Source: an uncultured bacterium
Lineage (GTDB): Bacteria; Fermentibacterota; Fermentibacteria; Fermentibacterales; Fermentibacteraceae
Direction: 5' to 3'
NCBI GenBank assembly: GCA_964564435.1
Contig: CAZMAT010000003.1
Span: 96,451-160,450 of the forward strand
Length of the DNA: 64,000 nt
The notes below the pieces were generated by a model. The model was not told the origin of the DNA. It ran no database searches and worked only from the letters and a program-made list of their open reading frames with translations. This document shows positions 6,291 to 62,089 of this stretch, one piece after another (within the stretch, counting starts at the first letter, position 1; every line of letters starts with the position of its first letter). Both the position numbers and the translations under genes were made by a program.

Positions 6291-6331
6291 CTATACCCGG
6301 ATCCTGCCGGACTCGCGAGGGAGCCAGCGGC

Positions 6332-6547: not shown

Positions 6548-6590
6548 CTCTGCCGCTCCTTGGAAATTCCGGCTCTCCGGACGCGGGGCA

Positions 6591-7871
6591 TCATTGGGAC
6601 ATGCTCGCCATCGCGTCAAGGAACCTCTTGTTGGACTTGTGCTGGGAGATCTGCTTCTTGAGGAGTTCCATGGCCTCCACGGGATTGAGGTCGACCAGGA
6701 TCTTCCTCATTATCCAGACCTTGCTCAGGGTCTCCTCGTCGAGGAGCAGCTCCTCGCGCCTGGTGCCCGACTTCGTGATGTCGATGGCGGGGAAGACCCT
6801 GCGGTCGGCGAGCCTCCTGTCGAGGACTATCTCGCTGTTGCCGGTTCCCTTGAACTCCTCGAAGATGACCTCGTCCATCCTGCTGCCGGTGTCCACGAGG
6901 GCCGTCCCGACTATCGTCAGGCTACCGCCCTCCTCGGCCTTCCTGGCCGCGCCGAAGAACCTCTTGGGGCGCTGCAGGGCGTTGGAGTCGACACCGCCGG
7001 AGAGGATCTTGCCGGAATGGGGGATCACGGTGTTGTTGGCCCGGGCGAGGCGCGTGATGGAGTCGAGCAGGATCACGACGTCGTGGCCGCTCTCGACCAT
7101 CCTCTTGGCCTTCTCGAGCACTATGTCGGCCACCTGGACGTGGCGCTTGGGGGCTTCGTCGAACGTGGAGCTGATCACCTCGCCCCTGACGTTGCGCTTC
7201 ATGTCCGTGACCTCTTCGGGCCTCTCGTCGATCAGGAGGACGATGAGCACCACCTCGGGGTGGTTTATGGCTATGCTGTTCGCTATGTGCTGGAGGAGTA
7301 TGGTCTTGCCCGCCCGCGGCGGGGAGACTATCAGGGCGCGCTGCCCCTTCCCCAGCGGGGTCAGGAGATCCATGATGCGGCCGCTGAACTCCTCCGAGTC
7401 GTGCTCCAGGATGAAGCGCTCCTTGGGGTAGTAGGGGGTCAGCTCGTCGAAGTTGCGCCGTGTCCTGGCGAGATCGGGGCTCTTCTGGTTGACCGTCTCG
7501 ACCCTGAGGAGGGCGAGGTACTTCTCGCCTTCCTTGGGCTGCCTGACCTGGCCAGATATCGTGTCGCCCGTCAGGAGTCCGAACCGCTTTATCTGAGACG
7601 GGGAGACGTAGATGTCGTTGGTCCCTGGCAGGTAGTTGGATTCGACGGCCCTGAGGAAGCCGTACCCCTCGGGCAGGGTCTCCAGCACTCCCGTCGCGAA
7701 CTCGAGCCCGTTCTTCTCGGTCTGGCTCTCGAGCATCATCTGGATGAGATCTCGCTTCCTGCAACCGGCGATACCCTTGATCTCCATGCTCTTGGCTATG
7801 GCCTGGAGCTCCACCAGCGTCATGCTCTCGAGATCGGAAAGGGAATGACCGTCGAGCGGCTTTTCTACCAT
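6591..7871 (-). CDS. rho: transcription termination factor Rho
   Basis: Full Rho architecture (N-terminal RNA-binding domain, Walker A PPRAGKT, RecA-like core). Start re-picked at [23 protein letters not shown] (ATG at 7871, 426 aa); the track ORF is 51 codons longer. Confidence 0.92.
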
Positions 7872-8617: not shown

Positions 8618-10195
8618 GTGAACAGGCGCAGGTTCTCCCGGATCGCCGTGCTGTCGGCCGCCCTGGCGGCGGCCGCCGCATCCTCCCTGGCTTCCCTGCG
8701 GTACGAACCGGGCCCGTGGTCCTGGGCGGCCTCCGCCGTCTGCGCCGCATCGGCGGCGCTCCTTGCCTCTCGCGGCCACCGGGACGGAAACGGCGCGTCG
8801 ACCCACCGGCAGGCATCCGCCGCCGCCCTCGTCCTCTCCTCCGTGAGGCTGACCGGAGGCTTCGGCGGGCCCCTGACTCCGCTCTACTTCCTGCTCCTCG
8901 CCTGGATGGCGGGGCGTCCCGTCCAGGGGCCCGCACTCGAGGCCGGGATCGCCCTGGGACTCGTCGAGGGGCTGCTCACCGCATCCAGGGGCGGCCTGAT
9001 CACCCCCGGTCTCCTGGGCAGGCTTTCGGCGGCTGCCCTGCCTCTCGTCGCACTTCCGGTGTCGTCGCTCGCGCTGGAATGGATGGCATCGGGAGGCGGG
9101 CGCGCGAAAGGTCCGGGGAGCAGATCCGGGCGGACTGGTCCATGCGGGAATGATCCTGCTCCCGTCTCGCAGGGCTGCCTGGAGCTCGTCAAATCGATCG
9201 CCCAGGCCGGCAGTCTCGGCGGGGCCATACACTCGACCGCAGCCTGGCTGGCAGGCTCCGGGAACGATCTGACCGTCACCGTCGGGCTCCTGTCCGGCGA
9301 CAGCGGCAGCCTCGACGTTTACGAATCGCTGGGCCCCCTGGCGCAGGGACGAGTCGGCATGAACTTCGACCTGGAGGGCTCGGTGGCGGGGTGGACCATC
9401 AGGAGCGGCAACTCGATATCGCGCTGCGGCCTCGGGAGCGGCGGGCGGGCCGTCACCACGCTCTCCCGGTCCGATCCATCGACCGTGCGCTGCGGGAGCT
9501 GCTCGGCAGCACCCGTGGTGATCTCCGGCAAGAGCGTCGGAGTCCTGCTCGTCGAATCCCCCTCGGAGGAGGGCACCGGAACCGGAGTCGAGGGGACGCT
9601 CGACCTGGCGGCCGGGCTGCTCGGCCTGGCGATAGAGAAGATCCTCCTCCGCGAGCAGAAGAAGGATCTCCAGAACAGGGACGGTCTGACGGGGCTTCCG
9701 CATCCCGTGGACTTCATGGATTTCGTGAGGCGGACATCGAGGGACGTCTACCGGTTCGGCAGGAGCGTATCCCTGTTCGTGGTGGAGATCGATTCCCTCG
9801 AGGAGGTGAACGCCGCGCACGGTTTGAGGGGAGGGAACAGGCTCCTGTCCGCCTGCGGCGAGAGCCTCGGAGGGATTGCCGGCTCCGAGGCGGCTATCAC
9901 CAGGCTCTCGGCCTCGAAATTCGCGATCTGCATCCCCGGCATGGACCAGGCCGCGGCGGAGGCGTTCGCCGAGAGCGTCGTGAGGAGCTTCGACGGCATG
10001 AAGGTGAAGCTGGAGTCCGGCGAGATATCGCCGAGAGTCGTCGTGGGGGGGGCGGTGACGAGGAGCGACAGGAGGATCGAGTCGCTATGTGCCGAGGCTT
10101 CGCGGGCCATGGTCTCCGCGAGGGCGGTCTCCTCGAGGTTCCAGGTCGCGCTCCTGCTCGCATCCGGACAGAACCACGGGGCCGTCGATCCTTGA
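8618..10195 (+). CDS. membrane-anchored GAF/GGDEF-domain protein with degenerate GGDEF
   Basis: About 5 N-terminal TM helices, a central GAF-like region, and a C-terminal GGDEF fold (GLTGLPHPVDFMDF...LFVVEIDSLEEV...RLSASKFAICIPG). The GG[DE]EF signature is replaced by SASKF. The 5' end of the track ORF overlaps a repeat element, so the start was moved to GTG 8618; this is uncertain. Confidence 0.65.
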   Translation: MNRRRFSRIAVLSAALAAAAASSLASLRYEPGPWSWAASAVCAASAALLASRGHRDGNGASTHRQASAAALVLSSVRLTGGFGGPLTPLYFLLLAWMAGRPVQGPALEAGIALGLVEGLLTASRGGLITPGLLGRLSAAALPLVALPVSSLALEWMASGGGRAKGPGSRSGRTGPCGNDPAPVSQGCLELVKSIAQAGSLGGAIHSTAAWLAGSGNDLTVTVGLLSGDSGSLDVYESLGPLAQGRVGMNFDLEGSVAGWTIRSGNSISRCGLGSGGRAVTTLSRSDPSTVRCGSCSAAPVVISGKSVGVLLVESPSEEGTGTGVEGTLDLAAGLLGLAIEKILLREQKKDLQNRDGLTGLPHPVDFMDFVRRTSRDVYRFGRSVSLFVVEIDSLEEVNAAHGLRGGNRLLSACGESLGGIAGSEAAITRLSASKFAICIPGMDQAAAEAFAESVVRSFDGMKVKLESGEISPRVVVGGAVTRSDRRIESLCAEASRAMVSARAVSSRFQVALLLASGQNHGAVDP

Positions 10196-10209
10196 GGGTC
10201 GCGGCAAGG

Positions 10210-10590
10210 GTGCTCCTGTTCGCTCTGGCAGCGGTGATCTGGATCCTGAGCTCGGATCCCGCCCCGGATTACATCCCGCCCCTCTTCCCATATCAGGACA
10301 AGCTCATGCATTTCGTGGAGTTCGCCTCGCTGGGATTCGCCATCTCGCTGAACCGCGACCTGTTCCGGAGATCGGACGGCGCCGCCCTCGCCTCCGGCGT
10401 TCTGTGGGCGGGACTCGACGAGATCCACCAGGCCTACGTCCCGGGAAGGGACTGCTCGACCGGCGATTTCCTGGCCGACTGCGCCGGGCTGGCCGCGGGT
10501 TTCGCGGCCGGGGCTCTGAGGTCGGCCAGGGCTGGCCGCAGGCGCAGGCTTGGCCTTATGTTCCGCGAACGGAGTGAAAGCGGCTCTTGA
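10210..10590 (+). CDS. VanZ-like family membrane protein
   Basis: LFPYQDKLMHFVEFA...GLDEIHQAYVPGRDCSTGDFLADCAG matches the VanZ family. It is the 3' part of track ORF 9391..10590, whose 5' portion is antisense to the GGDEF gene. Start uncertain (GTG 10210 or TTG 10192). Confidence 0.6.
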   Translation: MLLFALAAVIWILSSDPAPDYIPPLFPYQDKLMHFVEFASLGFAISLNRDLFRRSDGAALASGVLWAGLDEIHQAYVPGRDCSTGDFLADCAGLAAGFAAGALRSARAGRRRRLGLMFRERSESGS

Positions 10591-10698
10591 CACCGCTTCA
10601 CCGGCAGGATACGATCTTCAGTCGGACAGGGGTCGGTCCTCAAGTTGTTCCCAGGGGTCCATTCAGCCATTCTGACCAGTCGAGAGGAGGTCCCGCGT

Positions 10699-10965
10699 AT
10701 GCCTAGAGCCAGGATGATCTGGTTCTGCCTGGCAGTTCTCAGCGCCGCCCTGCTTCTCTCCGCCTGCGGTCCCAGCGAGGCACAGATCCGTGCCAGGGAC
10801 GAGGCCAGGAGTGCGGCTCTTGCGGCCGAAGCCAGGGCAGCCAGCCTTCAGGCCGAGTATGCAGATCTGACCGAGTCCATCCCCCAGAAGGAGGCTCAGG
10901 TCCAGTCACTTCAGCAGGAGCTCGCCGAGCTCCAGGCCGAGTATCAGGCACTCGGCGGCCGCTAG
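10699..10965 (+). CDS. small coiled-coil lipoprotein
   Basis: MPRARMIWFCLAVLSAALLLSACG signal and lipobox, then heptad-like AQIRARDEARSAALAAEARAASLQAEYADL... GAGAGGAGG RBS precedes ATG 10699. Confidence 0.5.
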   Translation: MPRARMIWFCLAVLSAALLLSACGPSEAQIRARDEARSAALAAEARAASLQAEYADLTESIPQKEAQVQSLQQELAELQAEYQALGGR

Positions 10966-10980
10966 GAGGGGGGGAACGCA

Positions 10981-47643: not shown

Positions 47644-47869
47644 CCTCGCGGGCCTGCTGATGCTGCTTCTCGCCGCTGCCTGCAGCGGTCCGTCGGACAC
47701 GACGCAGCTCGTGGTGGATCCGGACCTCTGCATCGGCTGCGGTGAATGCGAGGAAGTCTGCCCCTACGGTGCCGTTGAGGTCGTCGACGGCCATGCCGTG
47801 ATCGACCCCGCCCTCTGCCACTTCTGCCTGAGGTGCGTCGAGGAGTGTCCGAAGGGGGCGATCTACTGA
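47627..47869 (+). CDS. small lipoprotein-type 2[4Fe-4S] ferredoxin
   Basis: MTRYASLAGLLMLLLAAACSG lipobox, then CIGCGECEEVCP and CHFCLRCVEECP. Confidence 0.6.
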   Translation: MTRYASLAGLLMLLLAAACSGPSDTTQLVVDPDLCIGCGECEEVCPYGAVEVVDGHAVIDPALCHFCLRCVEECPKGAIY

Positions 47870-49074
47870 TGAAGAAGCTCTCTCTGATCCTGCTCGTGCT
47901 TTCCGCCGCCGCCTGGTCGGCTGCGCTGGAGCAGTTCGTATCCCTGTCGGTCGAATCCGACAGCCTCGGGGTCTCCCCCGGCCGCAGGCAGGCCCTGTGG
48001 AACGGCATGATCTCCGAGGATTCCTGGGGCGTCAGGGTCACCGACAGATATCTCGATGCCGACAGCGGCGGGCTCGTCCCCCGGCGCTTCCTGGGCAGGA
48101 ACGACCTGCTGGTGGATGGTGACGCCAGATTCGGCGCCCTCACCGTCAGCCCCGGCTTCAGATGGAACACCGCCGCGGGCGACGGCCTCGACTTCATCCT
48201 GCCCGACCAGCAGGGCACGGTGCTCGACCGCTCCTACACCAGGCCCGGGCTCGGCCTCGGTGTCTCGCTGCCCCACGGGTTCGGCGCGTTCGTCGAGGGC
48301 AGCCTCGTGGAGCGCAGCCTCGAGTACCCCGACGGTTCCTCCCTCGGCTGGTCCGGCCAGGGCGCCGAGGGCTACGTCGAGTGGGACGCCCCGGGCCTCT
48401 TCTGGGCCAGGGCCGGAGGCTCCTTCCGCAAGCACTCGAGCGACGACATCGGGTTCGATACCGACTGGTCCGAAGTCGGCGCAGCCGTGGGCATCCGAAC
48501 CACCGTGCTGCCCGCAAGGGTCCAGCTCGTCGGCCAGGCCGAGTTCGGCTCCCTTTCGGGGGAGGACTACCTGGGGGGCGACCTGGGCGAGAGGGCTTCG
48601 CTCCGGCTGCGCGCCGTCAGGTCCTTCACTCCCGGGATGGCGCTGGACATGACAGTGTTCTCGTCTCTAGACCATCGCGACGGGGCCTGGTACAGGGCTG
48701 CCTCATCGGGTGCCGCGAGGCTTGTCCTGACGCGCGGGAGGCCCGGGGAGATCCCCAGCCAGCTCGTGCTGGGGGGGCAGGTGACGTCCTCGTCGTTCAC
48801 GACCGCGCGCTTCGAGGCCTCCGGCAGGCTCCACCTGGTCGAGGGGCTGTCCACGCTGCTCTCGGCCACGGCCCGCAGGATCCCGACAACCGTCGCGGGC
48901 GCCGGGCCCGGACGCGACTGGGTGACCCTCGGCGCCGGACTCGAATACAGGATATCCACCCTCGCCGTCGTCTGGGCGAAGGTGCAGCAGGAACTGACGA
49001 TACTGAACGACACCGAGGACTGGACGAGGCTGGACGCCGGGATCCAGTTCTGGCCGCCTTCCATCAGTATCTGA
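47869..49074 (+). CDS. outer-membrane beta-barrel protein (putative porin)
   Basis: MKKLSLILLVLSAAAWSA signal and ~16 amphipathic beta-strand segments. ATG overlaps the TGA of the preceding ferredoxin gene. Confidence 0.5.
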   Translation: MKKLSLILLVLSAAAWSAALEQFVSLSVESDSLGVSPGRRQALWNGMISEDSWGVRVTDRYLDADSGGLVPRRFLGRNDLLVDGDARFGALTVSPGFRWNTAAGDGLDFILPDQQGTVLDRSYTRPGLGLGVSLPHGFGAFVEGSLVERSLEYPDGSSLGWSGQGAEGYVEWDAPGLFWARAGGSFRKHSSDDIGFDTDWSEVGAAVGIRTTVLPARVQLVGQAEFGSLSGEDYLGGDLGERASLRLRAVRSFTPGMALDMTVFSSLDHRDGAWYRAASSGAARLVLTRGRPGEIPSQLVLGGQVTSSSFTTARFEASGRLHLVEGLSTLLSATARRIPTTVAGAGPGRDWVTLGAGLEYRISTLAVVWAKVQQELTILNDTEDWTRLDAGIQFWPPSISI

Positions 49075-49126
49075 ATCACCTCTCCAGGGGTCCCGGCACC
49101 GGCCGGGGCCCCGTGGGAAGCCGCCG

Positions 49127-50257
49127 ATGACACTCGACCCCCTGATCCGCGGAGCCGCCCTCGGCCTCGCCACCGGAACGGCCTGCCTGGCCTCCTGCGG
49201 CCCGGTCTACGGGGCCTACCTGCTCTCCGAGAAGAGGTCGGGTCTCGAGTCGCTGCGCGTGCTCCTCGAGCTCAACCTGGGAAGGTTCCTTTCCTACGCC
49301 GCCTTCGGAGCCCTTTTCGGCCTGCTGGGAGGGTCGCTCCCAGTCTCGATAAGGGGGCCCCTGGCGGCGGCTGGATACATCCTCTTCTCCGTCTATCTCC
49401 TTCTCTCGGTCGTCCGTGCCAGGAAGTCGTGCGGCGGCGGATGCTCAACTTCCAAGCTAACCCGCTTCACCCGGAGTCCGCTGCTGCTGGGCGTGCTCAC
49501 CGGCCTCTCGGTGTGCCCCTCGTTCCTGATCGCGGTAACAGGCGCGTTCGAATCCAGCGGTCCACTGAGCGGAGCTCTCCTCTTCTCGGGATTCTTCGCG
49601 GGGACGACCGTATACATGCTTCCTTTCGCAGTCCTGGGACTTTTCACCAGGAAGGCCTGGTTCACCACGATCGCGAGGGTTCTTGCAGTCATCGTCTCGG
49701 TCTACTTCCTGGCCGTCGGGGTGCGCATGGCCCTGGCTCTGATCAATCCCGGCGTATCGCAGACCACCGGCACCGCGGGCGCTCCCTCCGACGGTGAAGG
49801 GCCGGCATACGCGGCGCTCGAGGAGGATACGCTCTATTTCGTGGGCATACCGGGCGACCCGGCGGATCACGCACAGGATCTCGCCGCGTTCTTCGGCTCG
49901 CAGGAAGGCCCCGGAGCCGTCTTCGTCGCCGTCGCCCCCGCCGATCCGACTTCGTTCGCCGGGCGCATCCCCGAGCTTTCCTCGGTCATCGTGCCCTGGT
50001 GGGTCGACCCGAGGAGCGGGATCGCCCTCGAGCCATGGCAGGCCGAGTTCGCATGGGTCGTGGAAGCTCGCAGATACAGGGCCTTCGCGGTCGAGTACGA
50101 GCCGTGGTGCGAGGACAGGGCCGAGACGATCCGGTCGTTCCTCGACAGATACAGCTTCAGTGTGGAGCCCGATTCCGGATTCACTTTCCTGATGCAGAAC
50201 ACCCTCGAGTGTCCGCCGGATTCCTGCGCGACGTGCCCCCTCGGGGCGTTCGAGTAG
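49127..50257 (+). CDS. polytopic membrane protein with Cys motifs and a C-terminal soluble domain ending CPLGAFE
   Basis: About 6 TM helices with TACLASCGP and SCGGGCS motifs. C-terminal ...ECPPDSCATCPLGAFE shares the CPLGAF motif with the NapH-like protein encoded at 51529-52968. Confidence 0.45.
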   Translation: MTLDPLIRGAALGLATGTACLASCGPVYGAYLLSEKRSGLESLRVLLELNLGRFLSYAAFGALFGLLGGSLPVSIRGPLAAAGYILFSVYLLLSVVRARKSCGGGCSTSKLTRFTRSPLLLGVLTGLSVCPSFLIAVTGAFESSGPLSGALLFSGFFAGTTVYMLPFAVLGLFTRKAWFTTIARVLAVIVSVYFLAVGVRMALALINPGVSQTTGTAGAPSDGEGPAYAALEEDTLYFVGIPGDPADHAQDLAAFFGSQEGPGAVFVAVAPADPTSFAGRIPELSSVIVPWWVDPRSGIALEPWQAEFAWVVEARRYRAFAVEYEPWCEDRAETIRSFLDRYSFSVEPDSGFTFLMQNTLECPPDSCATCPLGAFE

Positions 50258-50304
50258 CCTGACCCGCGCCTGACGCGGGGCTCGGCAGTTTCATGGAGGA
50301 AGAG

Positions 50305-51507
50305 ATGCCCACGGATTTCAGTGCTGGATATGCCGGACCCAGGGTCAAATCCGACTGCCTGGTCACCTTCGCGCCCGGAGAGGGCGCCCTGGAAGTCTCG
50401 ATCACTGGAGAGGCGGATCACGCCCCCCTCGAAGCGGCCATCAGGGCCGTCGCCGACAGGCTGGGTGTCGGCGGCAGGGTGACCGTGAAGGATTCCGGGG
50501 CCCTTCCCTTCGTGGCGGCAGCCCGTTTCGAGGCTGCGGCGAGGAGGGCGCTCGGCGGCAGCCTGACCCCCCTTCCACCTGCGGTGGTCTTCCAGCCGTC
50601 GCCCAGGGTACGCCCCCGCAGATCGAGGCTGTACCTTCCCGGCAACCGCCCGGAGTTCCTGCCCAAGGCCGTCTCGTCGGGCGCGGACGGCGTGATACTG
50701 GACCTCGAGGACAGCGTCTCCCCCGACAGGAAGTTCGAGGCCAGGATACTGGTGGCCCACGCCCTCGCATCCATGGACTTCGGCGGGGTGGAGATCATGG
50801 TGCGCATCAACCAGGGGGCCGAGGGCGACGAGGACCTCGCCTGGATCATCCCGCAGAGGGTTCAGCACGTGCTTGTGCCCAAGGTCGAGACCCCCTCGAG
50901 GATCTCGGACGTCCGCGCACTTTCGGAGAAGATCGCGAAGCGGTGCCACAGGCCTGGGCTGCCGTGGTTCATGCCCATCATCGAGAGCCCCCTCGGGATC
51001 CTCTCTGCGCTGGACATCGCCCGCGCAGTGCCCGAAACCGCCGCCCTCACCCTGGGCCTGCAGGACCTGACCGCCGAGCTTGGCGTGAGGCCCACGCCGG
51101 GCGGACGAGAGAGCTTCTTCTCGCGCAGCATGATCGTGCTCGCCGCCAGGGCGGCCGGGCTCCAGCCGATCGATACCGTCTACGCCGACGTGAAGAACGA
51201 GGAGGGGCTCAGGGCATCCATCTCAGAGGCCCGCGAACTGGGATTCATCGGCAAGGGATGCGTCCATCCCGGGCAGGTCGCTGCCATCAACCAGGGTTTC
51301 ATGCCCGACGCCGAGTCGATCGAGTACGCGAAGAAGGTCGTGCTCGCCATGGAGGAGGCGCAGAGCCGCGGGCTGGGCGCGGTGGCCCTGGGCAGCAAGA
51401 TGATCGACCCCGCCGTCGCGAGGCAGGCCGAGGCCACCGTAGCGGAAGCCGTCATGTTCGGGATCATCCCCGAAGGCTGGAGGGATGCCGCGGGGGCGGG
51501 TGAATAG
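50305..51507 (+). CDS. citrate lyase acyl-carrier (CitD-like) fused to citrate lyase beta / citryl-CoA lyase (CitE, HpcH/HpaI family)
   Basis: N-terminal ~90 aa are CitD-like (GYAGPRVKSDCLVTFAPGEGALEVSITG...). The remainder is CitE-like (ILDLEDSV, MVRINQG, FIGKGCVHPGQV). GGAGGA RBS before ATG 50305. Confidence 0.7.
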   Translation: MPTDFSAGYAGPRVKSDCLVTFAPGEGALEVSITGEADHAPLEAAIRAVADRLGVGGRVTVKDSGALPFVAAARFEAAARRALGGSLTPLPPAVVFQPSPRVRPRRSRLYLPGNRPEFLPKAVSSGADGVILDLEDSVSPDRKFEARILVAHALASMDFGGVEIMVRINQGAEGDEDLAWIIPQRVQHVLVPKVETPSRISDVRALSEKIAKRCHRPGLPWFMPIIESPLGILSALDIARAVPETAALTLGLQDLTAELGVRPTPGGRESFFSRSMIVLAARAAGLQPIDTVYADVKNEEGLRASISEARELGFIGKGCVHPGQVAAINQGFMPDAESIEYAKKVVLAMEEAQSRGLGAVALGSKMIDPAVARQAEATVAEAVMFGIIPEGWRDAAGAGE

Positions 51508-51528
51508 AACCGGGCGGCCGGGGCCGCC

Positions 51529-52968
51529 CTAGCCCTCCTTCGTGCCGATCTCGCAGCTCCCGGAGGAAGGCTCGCCGGGCATCCCGCAGGACTGCCCCCT
51601 GCGCCCGGTGAGGCGGCACAGTTTCGTCCACAGGCCGGCCCGGCAGGCCAGCCCCAGCACGAACCCGTAGAAGCACAGGTACCGGCAGAAGAACCTGCCC
51701 CAGAGGATCGAAAGGACTGCCGCGGCCAGGCCGAGCACCAGGTTTCCCGCGAGGAACAGGGTGAACACAGCCCTGAACGGATCCACCTCGCAGAACAGGG
51801 CGGCCCAGGGCACGTCGAGGATGCCTCTCCAGGCCAGGACGACAGCCGCGCAGAAGAGCACGAACAGCACCGTCCTCGCTCCGAGCAGGATCCGGTCGAG
51901 CTTCCGGCCGGGCTGGGGGAGGCGCAGGATGTCTAGCTTCCAGAGGATCTCCTGGAAGGCCCCCATCGGGCAGACCCATCCGCAGTAGACCCTTCCGAAG
52001 AAGAGCGCGTGGACGACCGGCAGAGCCAGCAGGAGGATGCCGGCGAGCCCGAGGAAGGATATCGCCGTGCCGCCGAGGGCGTACTGGAACGCGCCCAGGG
52101 GGCAGAAGCATCCCTGGACCACGAAACCCAGAAGCAGGAGGCTCAGGGACAGCACGACGAGCCGTGTAGCCCGTGCCTTCCTCCTAGTCTTCCTCCCGCC
52201 CCGCAGCTTCCTCGATGCGATGGTCGCGAAGGCGAGGAGCACCGCCGTGATGCAGAGGATGACCAACGTCCTCGTGCGACCGGTCGAGGGGTTGCCGCAG
52301 GTGTCGTCCGTCCATCTCCCCGCCCAGTGAGGGCAGAGCTGCCTCTCGTACGGGCAGGCCGCCGCAGGCGGGAGGCCGCGAGGGCAGCCCAGCGAGACGA
52401 AGGCGGGCGGAGCGCCGGCGGAATCCTGCAGCGCCGACGCGGTGGTATCGGCCGTCAGCGGCCCCGGGTTGTCGCAGCGGCCGTCGGCGCCTTCATCCCT
52501 GTAGAGGGCGCATGACGGCGCTTCCGCGTAGCAGGCCTGCTCGGGGGTGTAGCCGAGGGGGCAGGAGACCACGACGCAGTCGGAGTCGTCGGTGGTCTGG
52601 CCCTGACTGGCGCTGTCGGGAGCCGTGACGCCGATGGAATCGGACTGTACTTCCTGCTGGACAACCGGATCGGGCGGGGTCGAATCCGGGCCCGTGTCAG
52701 GCCCCGTATCCGGATCGACCAGGGTTGTGTCAGCCGTGGAGACGATAGTGTCGGCCGGAGTGACATCGGGCTCGACCGCTTCCGTATCGGGCTCCGCCAC
52801 CGACGGCTGGGGGCCCGGATTGTCGCACAGGCCGTCTCCGTCGGAGTCGGTGAACAGCCCGCAGGTGGGGGCCGATTCGGGGCAGGCGTTCCCGGGCGGG
52901 AAGCCCAGCGGGCATGTCGCCAGAGCCGCCGATGTCAGGATGAATGCAAACCAGAACGAGGTTCTCAT
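51529..52968 (-). CDS. NapH/MauN-family membrane polyferredoxin-like protein with periplasmic Cys-rich Asp-rich repeats
   Basis: Signal peptide, then three repeats (CPLGxxPxxACxxxxPxC...DxDGDGxCDNPGP). TM domain carries CFCPLGAFQY and CGWVCPMGAFQE motifs diagnostic of the NapH/NosR/MauN Fe-S membrane family. Confidence 0.65.
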   Translation of the reverse strand: MRTSFWFAFILTSAALATCPLGFPPGNACPESAPTCGLFTDSDGDGLCDNPGPQPSVAEPDTEAVEPDVTPADTIVSTADTTLVDPDTGPDTGPDSTPPDPVVQQEVQSDSIGVTAPDSASQGQTTDDSDCVVVSCPLGYTPEQACYAEAPSCALYRDEGADGRCDNPGPLTADTTASALQDSAGAPPAFVSLGCPRGLPPAAACPYERQLCPHWAGRWTDDTCGNPSTGRTRTLVILCITAVLLAFATIASRKLRGGRKTRRKARATRLVVLSLSLLLLGFVVQGCFCPLGAFQYALGGTAISFLGLAGILLLALPVVHALFFGRVYCGWVCPMGAFQEILWKLDILRLPQPGRKLDRILLGARTVLFVLFCAAVVLAWRGILDVPWAALFCEVDPFRAVFTLFLAGNLVLGLAAAVLSILWGRFFCRYLCFYGFVLGLACRAGLWTKLCRLTGRRGQSCGMPGEPSSGSCEIGTKEG

Positions 52969-53034: not shown

Positions 53035-53658
53035 CTATTCGAAAATGTACTTGATGGAGGCAAAGGTCTCGTTCTCGAGATCGTTCGTCCCTGCGAGTAT
53101 CCAGTGGGGGACAGTCGACTCGAGCCCGCCGGTCGGCTGGCCGTCCGGGCTGCAGAAGACCGCGCGTCCGTCGGCACCGTTCCAGTTGTACACATAGACC
53201 GACTGACTGTCCGGGGTCGCGGTCCACTCTATGTCTATCAGCAGATTGTTGCTCCCGTTGTAGAAGAAGGGGGTGTCCAGGTCAGTGCTGAACCACTGGT
53301 CCGGGCCGAGACCCGACAGCGTGTACGTAGACCTGCTGAACACAAGCGTCTTCGACGACGGGACGTAGTTGTTCTCGAAGTTCGTGCCAAGAGCATCGAG
53401 GGTCGTGTAGCCCATGTAGATCTTGAAGTTGTTGTAGGAGCCGTGGTCTTCGCCGAACGGCGCACGCTTCCACATGAGATCCTGGATCGTGATCGCCGTG
53501 CCTATCTCGCTGTCGAGCACTACCACCTGGTAGCGCATTCCGGCAGGATATCAACCACCGCAGAAAGGCGTACTGCCGAGCCCTACGTCGCTGCCTATCT
53601 CGACGTCGGCCATCGCAGCCGTCGAAAGCAGCAGTGCCGCTGATATCAGTCTGTTCAT
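53035..53658 (-). CDS. secreted protein interrupted by in-frame TGA (signal peptide-CGG-TGA-mature domain): candidate selenoprotein or pseudogene
   Basis: ATG 53658 has a strong GGAAGGAGGAAGG RBS. Reads MNRLISAALLLSTAAMADVEIGSDVGLGSTPFCGG, then TGA at 53551-53553, then the same frame continues YPAGMRYQVVVLDSEIG... to the stop at 53035. An 8-bp stem with AGGU loop lies 14 nt downstream of the UGA. Local GC (~57%) is lower than background. Confidence 0.4.
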
Positions 53659-53720
53659 CCTTCCTCCTTCCCTGTCTGGAACCCAAATATACCTCCGCGG
53701 CGTCCCCGGGCAAAAGCGGC

Positions 53721-53767: not shown

Positions 53768-53845
53768 GGTCCGGTAGTTCAATTTGGTTAGAGCACCGCC
53801 CTGTCACGGCGGAAGTTGCGGGTTCGAGTCCCGTCCGGACCGCCA
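53768..53845 (+). tRNA. tRNA-Asp (anticodon GTC)
   Basis: 78 nt: acceptor GGTCCGG/CCGGACC, anticodon stem CCGCC/GGCGG with loop CTGTCAC, T-arm GCGGG-TTCGAGT-CCCGT, discriminator G, encoded CCA. Confidence 0.9.
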
Positions 53846-53862
53846 CTTCCCGCGCCCGCGGG

Positions 53863-54420
53863 AAGTGGCAGCGTCGCCAGCACTGTTTGCGAAGCAAACG
53901 TGCGAGAGACCATCAATCCAGCCTGTCACTCCTGTTCGATTTCGTGTGTCTGACTACTGCTTGCGCCGCAGCATTGCTCGCACTTCTTTCGAGGCTCTTC
54001 AGCTCGCACTGCGGGTCCTTCCGGGGGGCGTTGCCTCCCGTCCCCCTCATTTCGCGAAGCGAAATGAGAAACAAGCGGCAGCACGGTTCGCGAAGCGAAC
54101 CTGCGAGAGCGATCCAGCTGATCTGGTGGCACGCGTACTCGCAGTTTTCTGCGAAAACTGCTGTTACGCTACCTATCGATTCCGCCCTGCGAAATCGATG
54201 AAATTAGAAGGAAGCGGCAGCACGGTTCGCGAAGCGAACCTGCGAGAGCGATCCAGCTGATCTGGTGGCACGCGTACTCGCAGTTTGCTGCGAAAACTGC
54301 TGTTACGCTACCTATCGATTCCGCCCCGCGAAATCGATGAAATAAGAAGGAAGCGGCAGCACGGTTCGCGAAGCGAACCTGCGAAAGCGATCAAGCCTGT
54401 CCTCGAGCCCATGCGGTTCT
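53863..54420. repeat. 139-bp tandem repeat (about 2.3 near-identical copies plus one degenerate copy), each unit carrying three small hairpins
   Basis: Units begin at 54073, 54212 and 54351 (period 139) with only 3-4 mismatches. Internal hairpins are ggttcgc-gaa-gcgaacc, gcagtttt-ctgcg-aaaactgc and tcgatt...aatcga. A degenerate copy at 53863-54072 directly follows tRNA-Asp. Confidence 0.8.
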
Positions 54421-54429
54421 TCACCGTTA

Positions 54430-57120
54430 AGTGGGGCACAGGTCCTGTTCAGCAGCACCGTGCTCTCACCCTGAGTCTGTAGTTCTCGAAGCCCTTGAAG
54501 CCGTTGATGCTCCTGGAGATCTGATTTATCAGCTTGTTTCTGCTTCCGCAAAACAAGCTGGCTGCTATCGGCTCATCACTCTGTGTATCCACGCTGGGTA
54601 AGCTGATAATGTACGTCTACAGAAAATCTGCCCGCTTGTAGTCAACTACACTGTGAAGTCTTGATTGTCGACCCATCAGAGAATCCATTGCGCTTCTACA
54701 AGCAACAGGTTCAAGATCATTTCTCTGTAAGCAACGACGAGTTCTCCATCGATCCTGTGTTTCGAATCTGACGGACGCGGAAGCGTAAAAGGGCTCTAAG
54801 TCAATGTAGCAATCGACATTGGGCAACTACTTATATGCGGTATGATGCCGTGCTGGTCAGTATTCGACAGGCCATACCCATGCGGCTTCTTCGGACATTT
54901 GGTTGACATGGTTGCTCCCGCATACTAGTCATCGATCACTACTCACACTGAGTAACAACAGTTGCGGCATCTTCAGGGGGGTTGACGATGGGCATCGCCT
55001 TGGTTGCGCTTATCGTTACCGGAACACTGAACCTCACCAGTTATAACGTATGGAAACCGGCTTCGTGGAACAGGGCAGACGCTCGGGATCTGGTGATATC
55101 ATCTGTAACGGGTAATCCGGTTGTTGCAGGAGGCAGATGAAACATAGTCGGAGGCTCCGGTGGAGCCGATGAAGGAGAGTTCCGGGTCTGGGAATTTGAT
55201 CTTGCATCGCTTGGAACAACACCTCCTGCTGGTAGTGAGCCCTATCTATGGACATACGCGTATGCTGGAAGCACTGACTACTCTTCTCAGAAAGCACATG
55301 CACTTACTGCGTACGGATCCACGGAAGAAAACGAGAGCTACCTCGTAGCCGGCCATGACCACTACTGGCTCGGTCCGGTGCCGCACCTGCTCATATCGGA
55401 CTTGTATGTAGCAGGTGGATCTTCTCCCATTGGATCAGACCATCAATTCGAACGACCTGGTTCTGTCATGCCCGAGGCGAATGACATAGTCTACATTGAT
55501 GACATCAGTTCATTCGTCACCGGCTCTACCGGTGCAGGAATGGCTACCTGCGGAACCTATCGCCCAGGCGAAGGGTATCCCAAGCAGCCTTTCCTTCAGA
55601 TATCGGACATCGATGACTATTCGACGGTCTTCCCTGGTCTTTCGTCATCATCCTGGGGAAGAAGCCTCGGAGCAGTAGTATACGACTCGGAAAACAGCAT
55701 CATCGTTGCAGCCGGCATGTCTACGGGTTCGCCTTCAACGAATAGAATAGATAGAATAGTGATCTGCGGCTATAACCGATTCATAGGAGCCGTCGAGAAC
55801 TCCTTCTCGCTTGGCAGCTGCTTCTTAAGTGAAAACGAAGTCGAAGCATACAGACCGCCTCTTGTGGATCTCGGCGGAGGATTCTATCTGTATTTGACCA
55901 GCATACAAGGGCCGGTGGACATCTCGGGTTACTCATGGCACGGAGTTATCGCTACATTGTGGAAGTACAGCAATAATGGCGGAGTCGCGTCGATCAACTG
56001 CGTATCAAGTGACATCTGCAGGATACAGAACATCGCCGGCTACAGCAAGTTCTCCGACTTCATACCATTTTCGATAGGGCTTACCGAGAGCTTTGGAAGT
56101 TCCGGCGGTGACGCTGTCGTGCTGATTAACTCTAGATACACAGATGCACGGGAAGAGATCGACCAGTCCCGCCTTGTTGTTGGTACCGTGAATGTTGTTA
56201 TGGGATCTTCGCCAACAGTTGATATTGCAGACGGAGTCAATGATTTCCAAACGATACGGATACTACCAGAGCAGGAGTTCCAATCGGGTTGCGCGTACCA
56301 GGCCATGCTGGGGAACGAATTTGTCTTTACCGATTGCAGCAGCAGTGAGGCTTTTTCTGGAACCGGAGTAGGTGTTTTCTACAAGAGCCTGACATGTCAT
56401 GATTACAAGAAGATCTGGCTCTTCCAGATATCGCCGTCGAACGCAGAGGCGTCGATTGTACCGATGACGGAGCGAGAAGACCAGACCTATCCAGCGTCAG
56501 AAGTGAGCTTCCATCTGACCTCTAATCCGGTAGTGGATGGCGTTGTCGAAATTGCCACGAATGGGACGATTTCGACAGGTACAGAGGCTTTGTTGTTTGA
56601 TGTTTCGGGGAGGATGATCGGTCGAACCAGCCCCGATGTCTCTGGCACTTTCAGAATCGCAAGCGTTCATGGATGCCCTCTGCCAACTGGTGTCTATACT
56701 GCCGTGGTTACCCAGAACGGGGAGGCGTGCTTCGTTAGTACATGCGCTGTCATTGACTAAATGACATAGTGCTGCGACCAGCTTTGTGGGCTGCGCCTGC
56801 GCAGCCCACAACCTTATTGCTAACTAGTGTGGACGACGCATTACAAAGAGACAAGGTTCAATATAAGCTAGATTGTGATATTCAACCGCTTCATAGTACA
56901 ATGGGTGAGTTTCCGGTGTTGGAGTCATTTTCTCGACAGCAGAGTTCTTCCCTTATGCCTTATCTCAGTCCAGATGCTCTAGCACTCAACCTTTGCTATC
57001 CCAGCTGCCAGCGGCCTTATCGATTCTCCTAACTAGAACGCTTTGATGCTCCAAGCCTGACCGTGCTGAACCATTTACAGAAACCCCAGCAGACTAACAT
57101 TCCAACAGGTGATCCATATC
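54430..57120. mobile_element. low-GC (~50%) islet adjacent to tRNA-Asp, bracketed by copies of the hairpin-repeat family, no recognisable mobility genes
   Basis: Sharp compositional drop against the ~68% GC background. Located 3' of a tRNA gene, with repeat copies on both borders (53863-54420 and 57125-57370). A single large ORF lies inside. Confidence 0.6.
54988..56760 (+). CDS. islet-encoded Ser/Gly-rich secreted protein with T9SS-type C-terminal sorting domain, containing an in-frame TGA at 55138
   Basis: ATG 54988 has an AGGGGGG RBS. Reads MGIALVALIVTGTLNL... (hydrophobic N-terminus) for 50 codons, TGA, then the same frame continues 540 codons. The C-terminus (NPVVDGVVEIATNG...ALLFDVSGRMIG...GVYTAVVTQNGEACFV) matches the Por/T9SS CTD pattern. 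A stem-loop with GGU-containing loop lies 12 nt after the UGA. The track reports only the 55378..56760 part. Confidence 0.5.
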
Positions 57121-59152: not shown

Positions 59153-59196
59153 TTGACATCGCGGGCACGCCCCGCGATAAACGCGAATGATTCGCG
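59153..59196 (+). promoter_or_regulatory. putative promoter (TTGACA-17-GATAAA) plus 7-1-7 palindromic operator CGCGAATgATTCGCG overlapping the zur start codon (candidate Zur/Fur box)
   Basis: TTGACA 59153-59158, GATAAA 59176-59181, palindrome 59182-59196 spanning ATG 59187. An 8-bp inverted repeat atcgcggg/cccgcgat also lies in the spacer. Confidence 0.45.
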
Positions 59197-59645
59197 ATAT
59201 GGACGGAACCCTCGATTGCGACGGCGCCGGGATCACGCCCGAAGCCGTCCTGCACGGCCACGGCCTGCGCGTCACCTCGCTCAGGAGGTCGGTCATGTCT
59301 GCCTTTCTTGCTGCAGGGGGAGCTCTCTCGGCGGATGACCTGATGGCGAGGGTCGGCTTCGGGAGCCTTTCGAGCATCTACAGGGCGCTCGAGGCCATGG
59401 AGGCCGCGGGTGTGCTCGCGAGGTGCCCCGTCTCCGGCGGCGTGAGGCAGTTCTGCCTCGCACCGGGCAGGAGCTCGGGCCACAACCACTTCGAGTGCCT
59501 CGGCTGCGGCAGGGTGACCCACTTCGAGATGGACCTGCCCGAGGGATGCATGGACCGCGCACTGGGAAAGGGCTTCAGGGTGGAGAGCGCCTCTATCCAC
59601 CTTTCCGGCACCTGCCGCGACTGCGCTCGGAGGGCGAAGGGATGA
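59187..59645 (+). CDS. zur: Fur-family metalloregulator, likely Zur
   Basis: 152 aa with HNHFEC...CGRVTHFE and C-terminal CRDCAR metal-binding Cys/His motifs. Immediately upstream of znuACB with overlapping stop and start. Confidence 0.8.
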   Translation: MIRDMDGTLDCDGAGITPEAVLHGHGLRVTSLRRSVMSAFLAAGGALSADDLMARVGFGSLSSIYRALEAMEAAGVLARCPVSGGVRQFCLAPGRSSGHNHFECLGCGRVTHFEMDLPEGCMDRALGKGFRVESASIHLSGTCRDCARRAKG

Positions 59646-60469
59646 GGCGTTCCCTCGTTCCCATTCTCCTGACGCTGTCCGCCTGCAGGAACGCCCCGGC
59701 CCCCGTGGATGGTCTCGAGGTGGCGGTCAGCATCGCGCCGGAGGCCTATCTGGTGGAGGGCATCGCCGGCGATGCCGCCCGGGTGACCATAGTCGTCCCG
59801 CCAGGTGCGGATCCGCACTCGTACGAACCGACACCAGCGACGATGGAGGCTGTCGCGGACGCCGGCCTGTACCTCGCGATCGGCATGCCCTTCGAGGACC
59901 AGTGGCTCCCGAGGCTCCGGGGTTCGTCCCCGGGGCTAGAGGTGGTCCGGATCGACTCCGGGATCGACCGGACGGCCAATCCCGATCCCCACTTATGGAT
60001 GTCCCCCTCCCTGATGAGGATCCTCGCATCCAACACGTGCATGGCGCTCACGGCTGCTTCACCTGGCGACTCGGCACTGTTCGCCGGTGGCCTCGCCCGT
60101 CTGACGGCCGAGATAGACTCTGTGGACGCCGAGGCGGGCAGGATGCTCGAGGGGATGCGGGGGGCCTCGTTCACCGCCCTTCATCCCGCCTATTCCCATT
60201 TCGCCCGCGACTACGGCCTGGTGCAGATCGCCCTCGAGGTGGAGGGCTCCGAGCCCTCGCCGGCCGAGCTTGCCTCGATCGTACAGGCGGTGCGGGCTTC
60301 CGGCTCCAGGGTGGTGATCGTATCGCCCGGCTTCTCCACCGGAGCTGCGGGTGCGCTCGAGATGGAGCTCGGGATTCCCGCCGCGCCGCACGACCAGCTC
60401 TCGCGCGACTGGCCGGGATCGATGCTCGATCTCGCCAGGATCATCTCCGGAGGAGGTGGCTCGCAGTGA
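59642..60469 (+). CDS. znuA: zinc ABC transporter substrate-binding lipoprotein (ZnuA/TroA family)
   Basis: MRRSLVPILLTLSAC lipobox. TroA-like fold with the HSYEPTP metal-binding His and a second His (PHLWMSP). The track ORF is over-extended from 59423. Confidence 0.85.
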   Translation: MRRSLVPILLTLSACRNAPAPVDGLEVAVSIAPEAYLVEGIAGDAARVTIVVPPGADPHSYEPTPATMEAVADAGLYLAIGMPFEDQWLPRLRGSSPGLEVVRIDSGIDRTANPDPHLWMSPSLMRILASNTCMALTAASPGDSALFAGGLARLTAEIDSVDAEAGRMLEGMRGASFTALHPAYSHFARDYGLVQIALEVEGSEPSPAELASIVQAVRASGSRVVIVSPGFSTGAAGALEMELGIPAAPHDQLSRDWPGSMLDLARIISGGGGSQ

Positions 60470-61233
60470 CCACGGCTCCTCCCGTGGTGTGCCTGCGCAA
60501 GGTCACGTTCGGCTACGGGCCGGGCAGGCCCGCCCTCGACGGGGTCGACTTCGAGGTGGCCGTCGGAGACTACGTGGCGGTCATCGGGCCGAACGGGGGC
60601 GGGAAGACCACGCTCCTGAAGGTGATCCTGGGGCTCAGGACGCCCTGGTCGGGCACGGTCGAGGTGTTCGGAGGCCCGCCCGCGGCGGCGAGGGGCAGGA
60701 TCGGGTACGTGCCGCAGTGGAGCGGCGCCAGCCTCGACTTTCCAGCGACAGCTCTCGACGTGGTGATGATGGGCCTTCCCCCCAGGACCGGCGGACGGGC
60801 CGCGAAAGCGATAGCGCTCGACAGGATGGCGGACATGGGGATAGCCGGTCTCGCCGGGATCCATGCCGGGAGCCTCTCGGGCGGCCAGCGCCAGAAGGTG
60901 TACGTCGCCAGGGCGCTCGCGGGCGACCCGGAGCTGCTGCTTCTCGACGAGCCGGCCGCGAGCGTCGATCCCGCCGGCCAGGGCGGGCTCTACGACCTCC
61001 TTGCCAGGCTCAACGAGAAAGTGACCCTCGTTCTCGTCACCCACGACGTCGGAGCGGTCTCCGGTCAGGTGCGCTCGATCGCCTGCCTGAACTCGGAGAT
61101 GGTCAGCCACGGCGGCACGCTCGACACGGAGGCCCTCTGGAAGGCCTACGGCTGCCCGGTGGACCTCGTCTCCCACGGGACCCCGCACAGGGTTCTCGAA
61201 GCGGGCGCCCACGGAGGCTGCGGACATGCCTGA
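60466..61233 (+). CDS. znuC: zinc ABC transporter ATP-binding protein
   Basis: Walker A GPNGGGKTT, signature LSGGQRQK, Walker B LLLLDEP. GTG overlaps the znuA stop. Confidence 0.9.
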   Translation: MTTAPPVVCLRKVTFGYGPGRPALDGVDFEVAVGDYVAVIGPNGGGKTTLLKVILGLRTPWSGTVEVFGGPPAAARGRIGYVPQWSGASLDFPATALDVVMMGLPPRTGGRAAKAIALDRMADMGIAGLAGIHAGSLSGGQRQKVYVARALAGDPELLLLDEPAASVDPAGQGGLYDLLARLNEKVTLVLVTHDVGAVSGQVRSIACLNSEMVSHGGTLDTEALWKAYGCPVDLVSHGTPHRVLEAGAHGGCGHA

Positions 61234-62089
61234 GGCCCTGCTCAGGTTCGAGTTCCTGCAGCATGCAGTCCTGGCGATCCTGCTGGGATCGGTGGCCTGC
61301 GGCCTGATAGGCGGCCTGCTCTTCGTCAACAGGCTCTCGAGCCTCTCGGGCGGGATATCGCACGCGGTCTTCGGCGGTCTCGGCCTCTCCCTGCTCGCCG
61401 GCATACCCCCCCTGGCCGGCGCAACGGCTGCGAGCATCATAGCGGCTCTGCTGCTGGGCTTCATCTCCGCCAGGGCGAGGAGCCGGTCCGAGGCTGCGAT
61501 AGCAGCGGTCTGGTCGATAGGGATGTCGCTCGGCCTGATATTCGTGTCGCTGGCCCCGGGCTACAGGGGCGACCTGATGGGCTACCTCTTCGGGAGCGTG
61601 CTCGCAGTCCCGGCGGCGGACCTGGTGCTGACGGGCGCTGTCGATGCCGCCGCCCTCGCGTTCGTCCTCCTCTTCTACAGGCGCATCCTGTGCGTGTCCT
61701 TCGACCCCGAGTACGGAGCGACCCGCGGGATCGGCGCCGGCGCCCTCTACACCGCATTCCTCTGCCTCACCGGGCTCTCCGTGGTGGTTCTGATGAGATC
61801 GGTCGGACTTGTCATGGTGATCGCCCTGCTGACCATCCCCGCCGCATCAGCCCGCCTGCTCACCCACAGGCTCCCGGTGATGATGGCGCTCGCCTGCTGC
61901 TTCAGCGCAGTATCCGGGCTGGCCGGCCTGTACGCCTCCTGGGAGCTCGACTTGCCGGCCGGAGCCTGCATCGTGCTCGCAAGCGCAGCGCTGTTCGGCT
62001 GCATCTCCGCCGGCCGGGCCCTGTCCTCGCGCGCCCGGGGGTACGCAGCCGCAGACGCCGGACGGAGGGGCTCCCGAAGCGCCTCCTGA
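61226..62089 (+). CDS. znuB: zinc ABC transporter permease (ABC-3 family)
   Basis: 287 aa with ~8 TM helices typical of ZnuB/TroCD permeases. Confidence 0.85.
   Translation: MPEALLRFEFLQHAVLAILLGSVACGLIGGLLFVNRLSSLSGGISHAVFGGLGLSLLAGIPPLAGATAASIIAALLLGFISARARSRSEAAIAAVWSIGMSLGLIFVSLAPGYRGDLMGYLFGSVLAVPAADLVLTGAVDAAALAFVLLFYRRILCVSFDPEYGATRGIGAGALYTAFLCLTGLSVVVLMRSVGLVMVIALLTIPAASARLLTHRLPVMMALACCFSAVSGLAGLYASWELDLPAGACIVLASAALFGCISAGRALSSRARGYAAADAGRRGSRSAS

Follow-up and report, generated by a model that had tools for sequence, protein, structure and literature searches.

The locus described here raises the question of what an in-frame TGA means in the gene for a hypothetical secreted protein: a stop, the mark of a damaged gene, or a codon for selenocysteine (Sec). 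The gene lies at positions 53658-53035 on the minus strand of a 64,000-nucleotide stretch of DNA from an uncultured bacterium of the Fermentibacteraceae (NCBI GenBank assembly GCA_964564435.1, contig CAZMAT010000003.1, positions 96,451 to 160,450; this whole stretch is referred to as the window). We conclude, with a probability of about 0.88, that the UGA is a genuine Sec codon in a new selenoprotein family, in which case the gene would encode a 207-residue precursor. A novel secreted selenoprotein with a CxxU motif had been put forward as a candidate from the letters of the window alone (here referred to as the sequence-only reading), and it is now strongly supported by a conserved TGA, by homologues with Cys at the same site, by a covarying hairpin and by the ratio of nonsynonymous to synonymous substitution rates (dN/dS). 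The recoding part of this conclusion rests on comparative data; export, chemistry and a partner protein are inferred.

The interrupted frame and its counterparts in relatives

The gene possesses the strong ribosome-binding site and the predicted signal peptide that the sequence-only reading had assigned to it, with AGGAGG read at 53668-53663 and the ATG at 53658-53656. From this ATG, the open reading frame (ORF) encodes MNRLISAALLLSTAAMADVEIGSDVGLGSTPFCGG up to the TGA at 53553-53551, and the same frame resumes directly behind it (YPAGMRYQVVVLDSEIG...; YPAGMRYQVVV...). The frame is thus open beyond the TGA as had been claimed, and the length of 170 codons given for it is corrected to the 171 sense codons counted up to the TAG at 53037-53035. 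Regions equivalent to the n, h and c regions of the window signal peptide are present in all homologues, including the uninterrupted Cys forms, and residues 1-13 are disordered in the predicted structure; the signal peptide of the 207-residue precursor is presumably cleaved. In the N-terminal segment that follows, the pattern (D)[VI]E[IV]G...P[FW]C is conserved in Sec and Cys forms alike.

We fetched the DNA of relatives for the homologues found by protein search and scanned genome and metagenome collections as well (L labels denote DNA loci of relatives, P labels homologous proteins, and A3 the protein alignment of Sec and Cys forms). As a result, 16 distinct DNA sequences with 31-90% amino-acid identity were found to have an in-frame TGA at the homologous codon, and this codon is never TAA or TAG. 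The sequences come from at least eight independent metagenome-assembled genomes (MAGs) plus metagenome contigs of JGI, ENA and Logan. Their sources include Ca. Fermentibacter daniensis (LKHB01, DAOSJK01), Ca. Fermentibacteria bacterium (JAKLEF01, JAUWSQ01), CAZRWD01 and Ca. Sabulitectum (JAGLOJ01, JAIOSV01, JAOZUR01). Because the TGA recurs in independent assemblies from many studies, a sequencing error is excluded. Moreover, the reading frame across the TGA is intact in every sequence, even where an indel of one codon lies between this codon and the hairpin described below. The local motif of the Sec forms, with U at the TGA, is [F/W/L]-C-[G/A]-x-U, and examples are FCGG-U-YPAGMRYQ (window), FCGS-U-YLSLRYQ, WCGS-U-EPDARYQ, LCGS-U-SPSLRYQ, FCAS-U-GSQNRYQ and FCGN-U-TISLRYQ.

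Gene callers have dealt with this codon in a uniform way. The protein search returned 10 homologues, every one of them called as a protein of 151-170 aa that starts right past the TGA position. All Sec-type homologues in the databases are called as 142-170 aa from just past the TGA, or are accompanied by a separate upstream ORF of 36 aa; such upstream ORFs, in frame with the main ORF, are called in L002-L007. The Fermentibacter copy is designated as a 163-aa hypothetical protein in the NCBI annotation. Every public copy is mis-annotated as a truncated "hypothetical protein", sometimes together with a stray 36-aa ORF.

The Cys forms were found by a profile search of 1.8 billion representatives and by a second, word-index search. 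These uninterrupted homologues have 201-218 aa, and each possesses a signal peptide, shares the N-terminal pattern (D)[VI]E[IV]G and has Cys in place of U. At the DNA level, L012 has TGC at exactly the UGA codon (FCADCAESMRYQ). The motif is CGDC in P0018, P0047, P0097, P0161 and P0164-P0168, CADC in P0162 and P0163, and CGFC in P0031; a lone Cys, at the U position, is present in P0054, P0118, P0123, P0156, P0171 and P0172. In column 42 of alignment A3, U stands in 8 rows and C in 9, and the first Cys of the motif is found in 13 of the 17. Since the Cys-form proteins run uninterrupted, they show directly that sequences homologous to the two halves of the window ORF form one polypeptide in relatives. 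The alignment of homologues proposed in the sequence-only reading thus finds the TGA again or a codon for Cys at the site, with one exception that is weighed below.

A CGDC Cys-form paralogue also occurs at another locus in Sabulitectum-like genomes (L032 6001-6615, L034 10001-10615). There it is accompanied by genes for YjbQ, pyruvate kinase and FTHFS as well as for a large fusion protein (Pyr_redox/rhodanese/TusA/DsrE). In other Ca. Sabulitectum MAGs the Sec form is found, next to a tRNA-Asp gene and a Fer4_5 gene as in the window.

The hairpin downstream of the TGA

An 8-bp stem with an AGGU apical loop, 14 nt past the UGA, had been noticed from the sequence, and we located it at 53536-53517 in the coding strand of the gene (Table 1). 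It contains one G-U pair and has a minimum free energy (MFE) of -12.1 kcal/mol. The spacing from UGA to stem is 14 nt in the window clade and 11 nt in most family members, and the distance to the loop is 19 nt in most relatives. The published consensus of the bacterial Sec insertion sequence (SECIS) has an upper stem of 4-16 bp, a distance of 16-37 nt from UGA to loop and an MFE <= -7.5 kcal/mol (PMC13188914). The window hairpin agrees with the criteria of that paper on all four counts, that is, the AGGU loop, the stem of 8 bp, the 22 nt to the loop and the MFE, and the suspected likeness to a bacterial SECIS is thereby borne out.

We then compared 13 aligned Sec-form sequences. The only helix predicted in their RNAalifold consensus is the SECIS-like hairpin, and 94% of the cells are paired in this alignment vs 15-77% when the 3' partner is slid. 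Compensatory changes are present at two pairs: the basal G:C is replaced by A:U or U:A, and the penultimate C:G by U:A, which is seen again in L025 and L027. In addition, the G-U pair of the stem becomes G-C in three sequences, and the AGGU loop is invariant. The choice of synonymous codons points in the same direction. At the second Val position, 11 of the 13 aligned Sec forms have GTA, a rare codon that accounts for just 5.1% of the Val codons in the genes of the window, and the Arg codon is CGC in every Sec form read, including genomes with 41-48% GC. L012, the sole Cys form whose DNA was compared, reads AGG TAT CAG ACC CTG here and is without the hairpin. The encoded peptide is RYQV in 8 of 8 Sec forms and variable in the Cys forms, with RYQT, HFQV, RDQI, HHQA, RCQV and others (A3).

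Covariation of the hairpin is genuine, though modest, since a conserved strand is encoded by the same region. For the same reason, namely that a conserved peptide is encoded here, we regard the signs of selection at the RNA level (covariation, synonymous constraint and loss in L012) as moderate. The signal of the hairpin is comparative, not one of the single sequence. An Rfam scan of the window returned two tRNAs only, and no SECIS family was matched.

A close known counterpart is the SECIS of E. coli fdhF, in which an in-frame UGA is likewise followed by a stem-loop with an AGGU apical loop inside the coding region. The fdhF sequence was verified by 100% identity in 5,419 E. coli genomes. It folds into a 17-nt GGUUGC...GCACC stem-loop 11 nt past the UGA, the same spacing as in most members of the present family. 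The stem of the fdhF SECIS has a bulged U. Unlike it, the stem of the family is a regular 8-bp helix with a 4-nt loop, which SelB would presumably bind, and the protein is unrelated to formate dehydrogenase.

Selenium use in Fermentibacteria and the rival explanations

The sequence-only reading had made its proposal depend on the genes of the Sec machinery. It is supported in part, by a Sec-containing selD in related Fermentibacteria; selA, selB and tRNA-Sec were not found in the window and the fetched loci. Motif scans for SelA, SelB and SelD gave nothing in the window, tRNA-Sec was found neither in the window nor in 16 loci, and the flanks past the window ends (L028-L031) contain no sel genes. 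However, the 145-kb contig L034, which carries a Cys-form paralogue, has an AIRS/AIRS_C gene that is SelD (TIGR00476, 300.5 bits vs a cutoff of 125). Its call is N-terminally truncated by an in-frame TGA at the canonical Sec site, ...LDYAPCAG-U-AGKLKP, and UxxK is the motif given for the SelD selenoprotein in Table 1 of PMC13188914. Queried against the databases, the L034 SelD matches proteins named SelD in Ca. Sabulitectum sp. and Ca. Fermentibacteria bacterium, and a close homologue in Ca. Aegiribacteria is annotated as a hypothetical protein only. The in-frame TGA at the UxxK site is also present in L036 (WJMA01, 61% GC), L037 (JAGLOJ01) and L038 (DAOWAD01). One MAG holds both genes, selD in L037 (JAGLOJ010000089.1) and the Sec-form locus L013 (JAGLOJ010000096.1).

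These SelD genes directly support the use of selenocysteine by Fermentibacteria. Moreover, since SelD itself contains Sec, working selA, selB and selC are implied in the lineage that bears it. The SECIS of selD has a G+C stem of 6-8 bp with the apex CC-AGGCU-GG or CC-AGGUU-GG, 21 nt past the UGA, and the apex of our family's own hairpin, CC-AGGU-GG at 19 or 22 nt, is very close to it. The two systems thus share the phylum (once the same MAG), the in-frame TGA, the CC-AGG(U/C)U-GG type of apex and the truncation by gene callers. They differ in that SelD is a cytoplasmic enzyme of the AIRS fold with Sec in a glycine-rich N-terminal loop, and there is no kinship in sequence or fold. Our literature search found no relevant link between Fermentibacteria or Fermentibacter and selenium, and the Hyd24-12 genome paper does not mention selenium.

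Some features of the SelD loci were recorded along the way. The genes lie at 2860-4092 in L034, at 9770-10993 in L036 and at 9743-10966 in both L037 and L038. At its N-terminus, outside the TIGR00476 model, the Fermentibacteria SelD is extended by a Cys-rich stretch of about 55 aa (CPCPxDCxRHGxCxxCIxFHH...YCE), and gene callers split the protein into an ORF of 73-75 aa and a truncated SelD. Downstream of the Sec-containing selD in L034, at a distance of 1.7 kb, lies a gene with DUF523 (2-thiouracil desulfurase-like) and DUF1722 (5803-6729); PMC13188914 counts DUF523 as one of the predicted selenoprotein families.

A hypothetical gene with a lone in-frame stop bears the commonest mark of a pseudogene, and this ORF is split or truncated by all gene callers. 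The alternative named in the sequence-only reading was likewise a pseudogene with a nonsense mutation or a sequencing error, to which an assembly error at the codon may be added. We calculated dN/dS by the Nei-Gojobori method for the 35 codons before and the 171 codons after the TGA and obtained 0.05-0.29 before and 0.08-0.62 after; for the window and L008 the values are 0.053 and 0.111, at a dS of about 0.5. Purifying selection on both sides of the UGA is directly supported by these ratios, which are well below 1, and no other frame disruptions or disabling mutations were found. Together with the recurrence of the same TGA across assemblies, they make a broken or misread codon appear extremely improbable, and the comparative data may be said to refute it in effect. 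A second rival explanation is two separate genes: a 35-residue exported peptide would end at a true UGA stop, a cytoplasmic protein of about 167 aa would be initiated or re-initiated behind it, and the hairpin would serve termination-reinitiation or mRNA stability. This explanation is favored by the ATG (M41) that stands 5 codons past the TGA in the window and is chosen by gene callers, as well as by the short upstream ORFs called in L002-L007. The ATG is, however, replaced by ATA, CTG, GCC or AAC in relatives, therefore there is no conserved restart, and no ribosome-binding site precedes it. The codons between the TGA and the M41 position are conserved as protein, the frame over the TGA is kept in all sequences in spite of the indel, and in the Cys forms a single uninterrupted secreted protein spans both parts, with Cys in place of the TGA. 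We consider two genes very unlikely.

It might also be supposed that the UGA is decoded, but not as Sec, either by near-cognate read-through, or as Cys through a tRNA-Sec-like tRNA, or because UGA means Trp or Gly throughout the lineage. Natural systems that recode UGA to Cys, and codes in which UGA is Trp or Gly, exist in other bacteria, and selA, selB and tRNA-Sec were not directly seen here. Against this, TGA ranks first among the ordinary stops of the window, ending 16 of the 28 high-GC3 ORFs with a stop, and for that reason the genetic code is, as judged from the window, not reassigned to Trp (table 4) or Gly (table 25). The RF1 gene itself ends in TGA at the normal length of 360 aa, and a scan for further in-frame TGAs in the window and the fetched loci yielded nothing credible, only GC-rich frame noise. 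A phylum whose SelD has Sec at the canonical site and a similar SECIS loop, together with the alternation of Sec and Cys and a SelB-type hairpin at fixed spacing, which is a specific signature of Sec, argues for Sec instead, and decoding as another residue seems quite unlikely to us.

The reading of the UGA as Sec has several findings to contend with. selA, selB and tRNA-Sec are lacking in the window and fetched loci, the window's own genome not having been searched genome-wide, and SelD was found in related genomes, not in that of the window. Homologue P0170 has Ser at the U/C position. The hairpin overlaps the conserved peptide RYQVVV, so its conservation is partly at the protein level, and just two pairs covary; the control for changes on both sides is weak, with 63 of 500 shuffles reaching the observed value. 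As a single sequence of 71 nt, the fold is no better than shuffles (z = -1.07), and 3.5% of the TGA trinucleotides in the window precede an 8-bp hairpin that passes loose bacterial SECIS rules; a TGA with an AGGT-loop hairpin even occurs by chance, out of frame, at 15995. The hairpin alone was rejected as evidence on these last grounds.

The RF1 gene, with PCRF and RF-1 domains and a TGA stop, lies at 4237-5319 on the minus strand, between a DUF1385 gene and prmC. In related contigs, GcpE and glutamine synthetase come next after the RF1 region.

Predicted fold, neighbouring genes and possible function

The window protein has no match in Pfam at E <= 1, and the same holds in NCBIfam for the window protein, L013 and L012, with all NF selenoprotein models included. 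Table 1 of PMC13188914 catalogues 119 prokaryotic selenoprotein families, and the window protein matches none of the models attached to them. The family is absent from both the catalogue and the NCBI annotation models.

A structure predicted from 11 sequences was too poor (pLDDT 54.9) and was replaced by an AlphaFold model from an alignment of 37 sequences (pLDDT 85.9, pTM 0.81), which is an all-beta sandwich. In this model, the N-terminal segment (strands 16-21 and 26-28) packs on the domain, and CGGU (residues 33-36) lies in a loop before strand 41-47. Structure comparison gave figures of 11.1 and 10.0 for phage tail-spike domains, 10.6 and 9.5 for carbohydrate-binding module (CBM) domains of acetylxylan and PVA esterases, 8.5-8.9 for PHR domains and 5-7 for CBM32/35/6 and lectins, and Foldseek agrees with it. 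The predicted fold is a CBM-like beta jelly-roll; a thioredoxin-like fold carrying CxxU had been considered and was rejected on the model. The sequence identity of the window protein to the CBM-like, PHR and phage tail-spike jelly-rolls is 5-14%, there is no Pfam CBM match, and no CBM is known to have a Cys/Sec pair.

The domain of about 160 aa belongs to a wider family with 1,703 cluster representatives at E <= 1e-3, for which there is no Pfam or NCBIfam model. Its members include lipoproteins of about 570 aa, in which the domain is repeated three times in tandem, and giant surface proteins (up to 5,973 aa) with 3-7 copies, some of which also have CBM96/DNRLRE and PKD domains. Because the Cys pair is missing from the repeat proteins examined (P0036, P0042, P0115), the Cys/Sec site, as judged from the proteins compared, is a specialisation of the single-domain, signal-peptide-bearing subfamily in Fermentibacteria and relatives.

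Among selenoproteins, predicted export and a CBM-like jelly-roll in place of a thioredoxin-like fold are unusual. Either selenium chemistry was recruited onto a binding scaffold, or the wider domain family has a ligand site here. The redox-type motif is shared with known Cys-x-x-Sec selenoproteins, and the F-C-x-x-U context and predicted envelope location resemble the FCYXU TonB-receptor family of cell-envelope selenoproteins given in Table 1 of PMC13188914. Unlike these, the window protein is without a model match, and its predicted jelly-roll is neither thioredoxin-like nor AhpD-like nor a TonB barrel.

The features of the locus are compiled in Table 1. The gene downstream of the selenoprotein gene encodes a protein with two Fer4_5 motifs (Pfam PF12801, E = 1.2e-14) and weak NosR, NapH and CcoG matches in NCBIfam, and the two genes are probably co-transcribed. 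The Fer4_5 gene is the immediate downstream neighbour in six loci (window, L001, L002, L005, L025 and L027), and the same pair is found in F. daniensis, the lineages of CAZRWD01 and Logan and, at 31% identity, two MAGs of Sabulitectum.

Table 1. Features at and around the predicted selenoprotein gene (positions in the window)
Feature	Position	Strand	Remark
Sigma-70-like promoter candidate (TTGCCC, 16-nt spacer, TATATT)	53686..53713	-	Consensus scan, 1 site vs 0.2 expected
Ribosome-binding site AGGAGG	53663..53668	-	4 nt ahead of ATG; read from sequence
Start codon and predicted Sec-translocon signal peptide MNRLISAALLLSTAAMA	53608..53658	-	Codons 1-17, AxA cleavage site
Mature N-terminal segment DVEIGSDVGLGSTPFCGG	53554..53607	-	Cys33 (TGC 53562-53560) opens the CxxU motif
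In-frame UGA, predicted Sec codon 36	53551..53553	-	TGA in 16 distinct sequences; Cys in relatives
Rest of coding sequence, codons 37-207 and TAG stop	53035..53550	-	Predicted beta jelly-roll / CBM-like domain
SECIS-like hairpin: 5' arm GCGCUACC, loop AGGU, 3' arm GGUAGUGC	53536-53529, 53528-53525, 53524-53517	-	Encodes (M)RYQVVVL
Gene for 479-aa polytopic membrane protein, Fer4_5 motifs (NapH/NosR-like)	51529..52968	-	66 nt after the selenoprotein gene
Terminator-like GC hairpin after the Fer4_5 gene	51512..51529	-	Consensus match only; presumed end of bicistronic unit

With NapH, NosR and CcoG, the downstream protein shares two Fer4_5 motifs in a polytopic membrane protein. Members of these families carry electrons from the membrane or cytoplasm to periplasmic partners. 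The downstream protein falls far under the family cutoffs (43 vs 1000 bits for NosR, 31 vs 213 for NapH); unlike these families, it has unique N-terminal Cys-rich repeats, and Nap, Nos and cbb3 genes were not found nearby.

On the basis of the above features, we propose that translation starts at the ATG at 53658, that SelB with Sec-tRNA(Sec) would dock on the hairpin and that Sec would be inserted at the UGA in place of termination, with the stem 14 nt and the loop 22 nt past the codon. This is the standard bacterial mechanism of insertion; what is new to the selenoprotein catalogue and the annotation models is the family. The signal peptide would direct the product through the Sec translocon, and because a sorting domain of the type IX secretion system (T9SS) is lacking, the product most likely stays periplasmic. 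The mature protein of about 190 residues would be a beta jelly-roll with Cys33-Gly-Gly-Sec36 in the N-terminal segment before the first core strand. Its functional site would be the Cys/Sec pair, most likely as a reversible selenenylsulfide redox centre or as a site that binds soft metal or chalcogen. The Fer4_5 protein, with Cys-rich N-terminal repeats that we assume to face the periplasm, seems the most plausible partner for delivering electrons.

Taken together, these steps would describe a novel kind of extracytoplasmic selenium-dependent module, in which a Cys/Sec centre on a CBM-like jelly-roll is kept reduced by a dedicated NapH/NosR-like conduit, possibly also by a nearby DsbD_2 protein, and acts on an external substrate, for instance polysulfide, elemental sulfur, some soft metal or a polymer with redox activity. 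We offer this module tentatively and hold it to be rather doubtful. The predicted fold is not a known redox fold, which weighs against the functional part, as does the absence of the Fer4_5 adjacency in the divergent loci L012 (Cys form), L013 and L023; because the linkage fails there, we treat the functional link to the Fer4_5 protein as conjecture. Besides SelD, the family may be among the few selenoproteins that sustain the Sec trait in Fermentibacteria. These are abundant uncultured fermenters of anaerobic digesters and sediments, and their use of selenocysteine matters for the dosing of trace elements in digesters. The family also provides a defined tryptic peptide, and its simple SECIS is amenable to tests in E. 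coli.

The N-terminus of the Fer4_5 protein consists of three tandem Cys-rich repeats after a signal-like segment, with several spaced Cys per repeat. They carry a thrombospondin-type-3-like acidic motif, D-x-D-G-D-G-x-C-D-N-P-G-P, most complete in the first copy, and no family model covers them. A convergent trio of genes lies nearby in the window (47833-51507, plus strand) and in the Sabulitectum loci L025 (14327-16469) and L027 (14893-18476). One gene encodes an unknown protein (about 400 aa), another a membrane protein of the DsbD_2 type that has an extra C-terminal part of about 180 aa, and the third is of the CitE type and, in the window, carries a fused ACP domain. The trio is followed by four ferredoxin-type genes in L027.

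On the other side, the adjoining tRNA-Asp reported from the sequence is confirmed as a divergent tRNA-Asp(GTC) at 53768-53845. Of the 16 loci scanned, 12 have tRNA-Asp as the neighbour upstream, and despite this conserved adjacency no functional connection with the selenoprotein gene was found. A degenerate partial repeat copy of 58 nt (53860-53917) lies directly 3' of the tRNA, and a 139-bp tandem repeat follows at 54061-54396 (2.4 copies, 95% matches), each unit of which contains the palindrome GGTTCGCGAAGCGAACC. The segment at 54-58 kb has a low GC content (0.52-0.56 vs about 0.66 elsewhere), and the Logan contigs of the region stop here. The region is possibly an island integrated at the tRNA-Asp, or a repeat (repeat region 53860-54480) that breaks assemblies.

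Within the low-GC segment, a 460-aa protein is encoded at 55378-56760 (plus strand), and its sole family match is a weak T9SS C-terminal sorting domain. T9SS-type tails are common among the neighbours in related loci, which suggests that the organism is diderm and T9SS-bearing. Finally, a metal-uptake operon with a Fur-family regulator, ZnuA, an ABC ATPase and an ABC-3 permease lies at about 59187-62089 (plus strand), 6 kb from the selenoprotein gene. In L005, the ZnuA/ABC operon and a radical-SAM gene are directly upstream of the tRNA-Asp and the selenoprotein gene, and because the operon adjoins them there, the low-GC segment may have separated it from the selenoprotein gene in the window.

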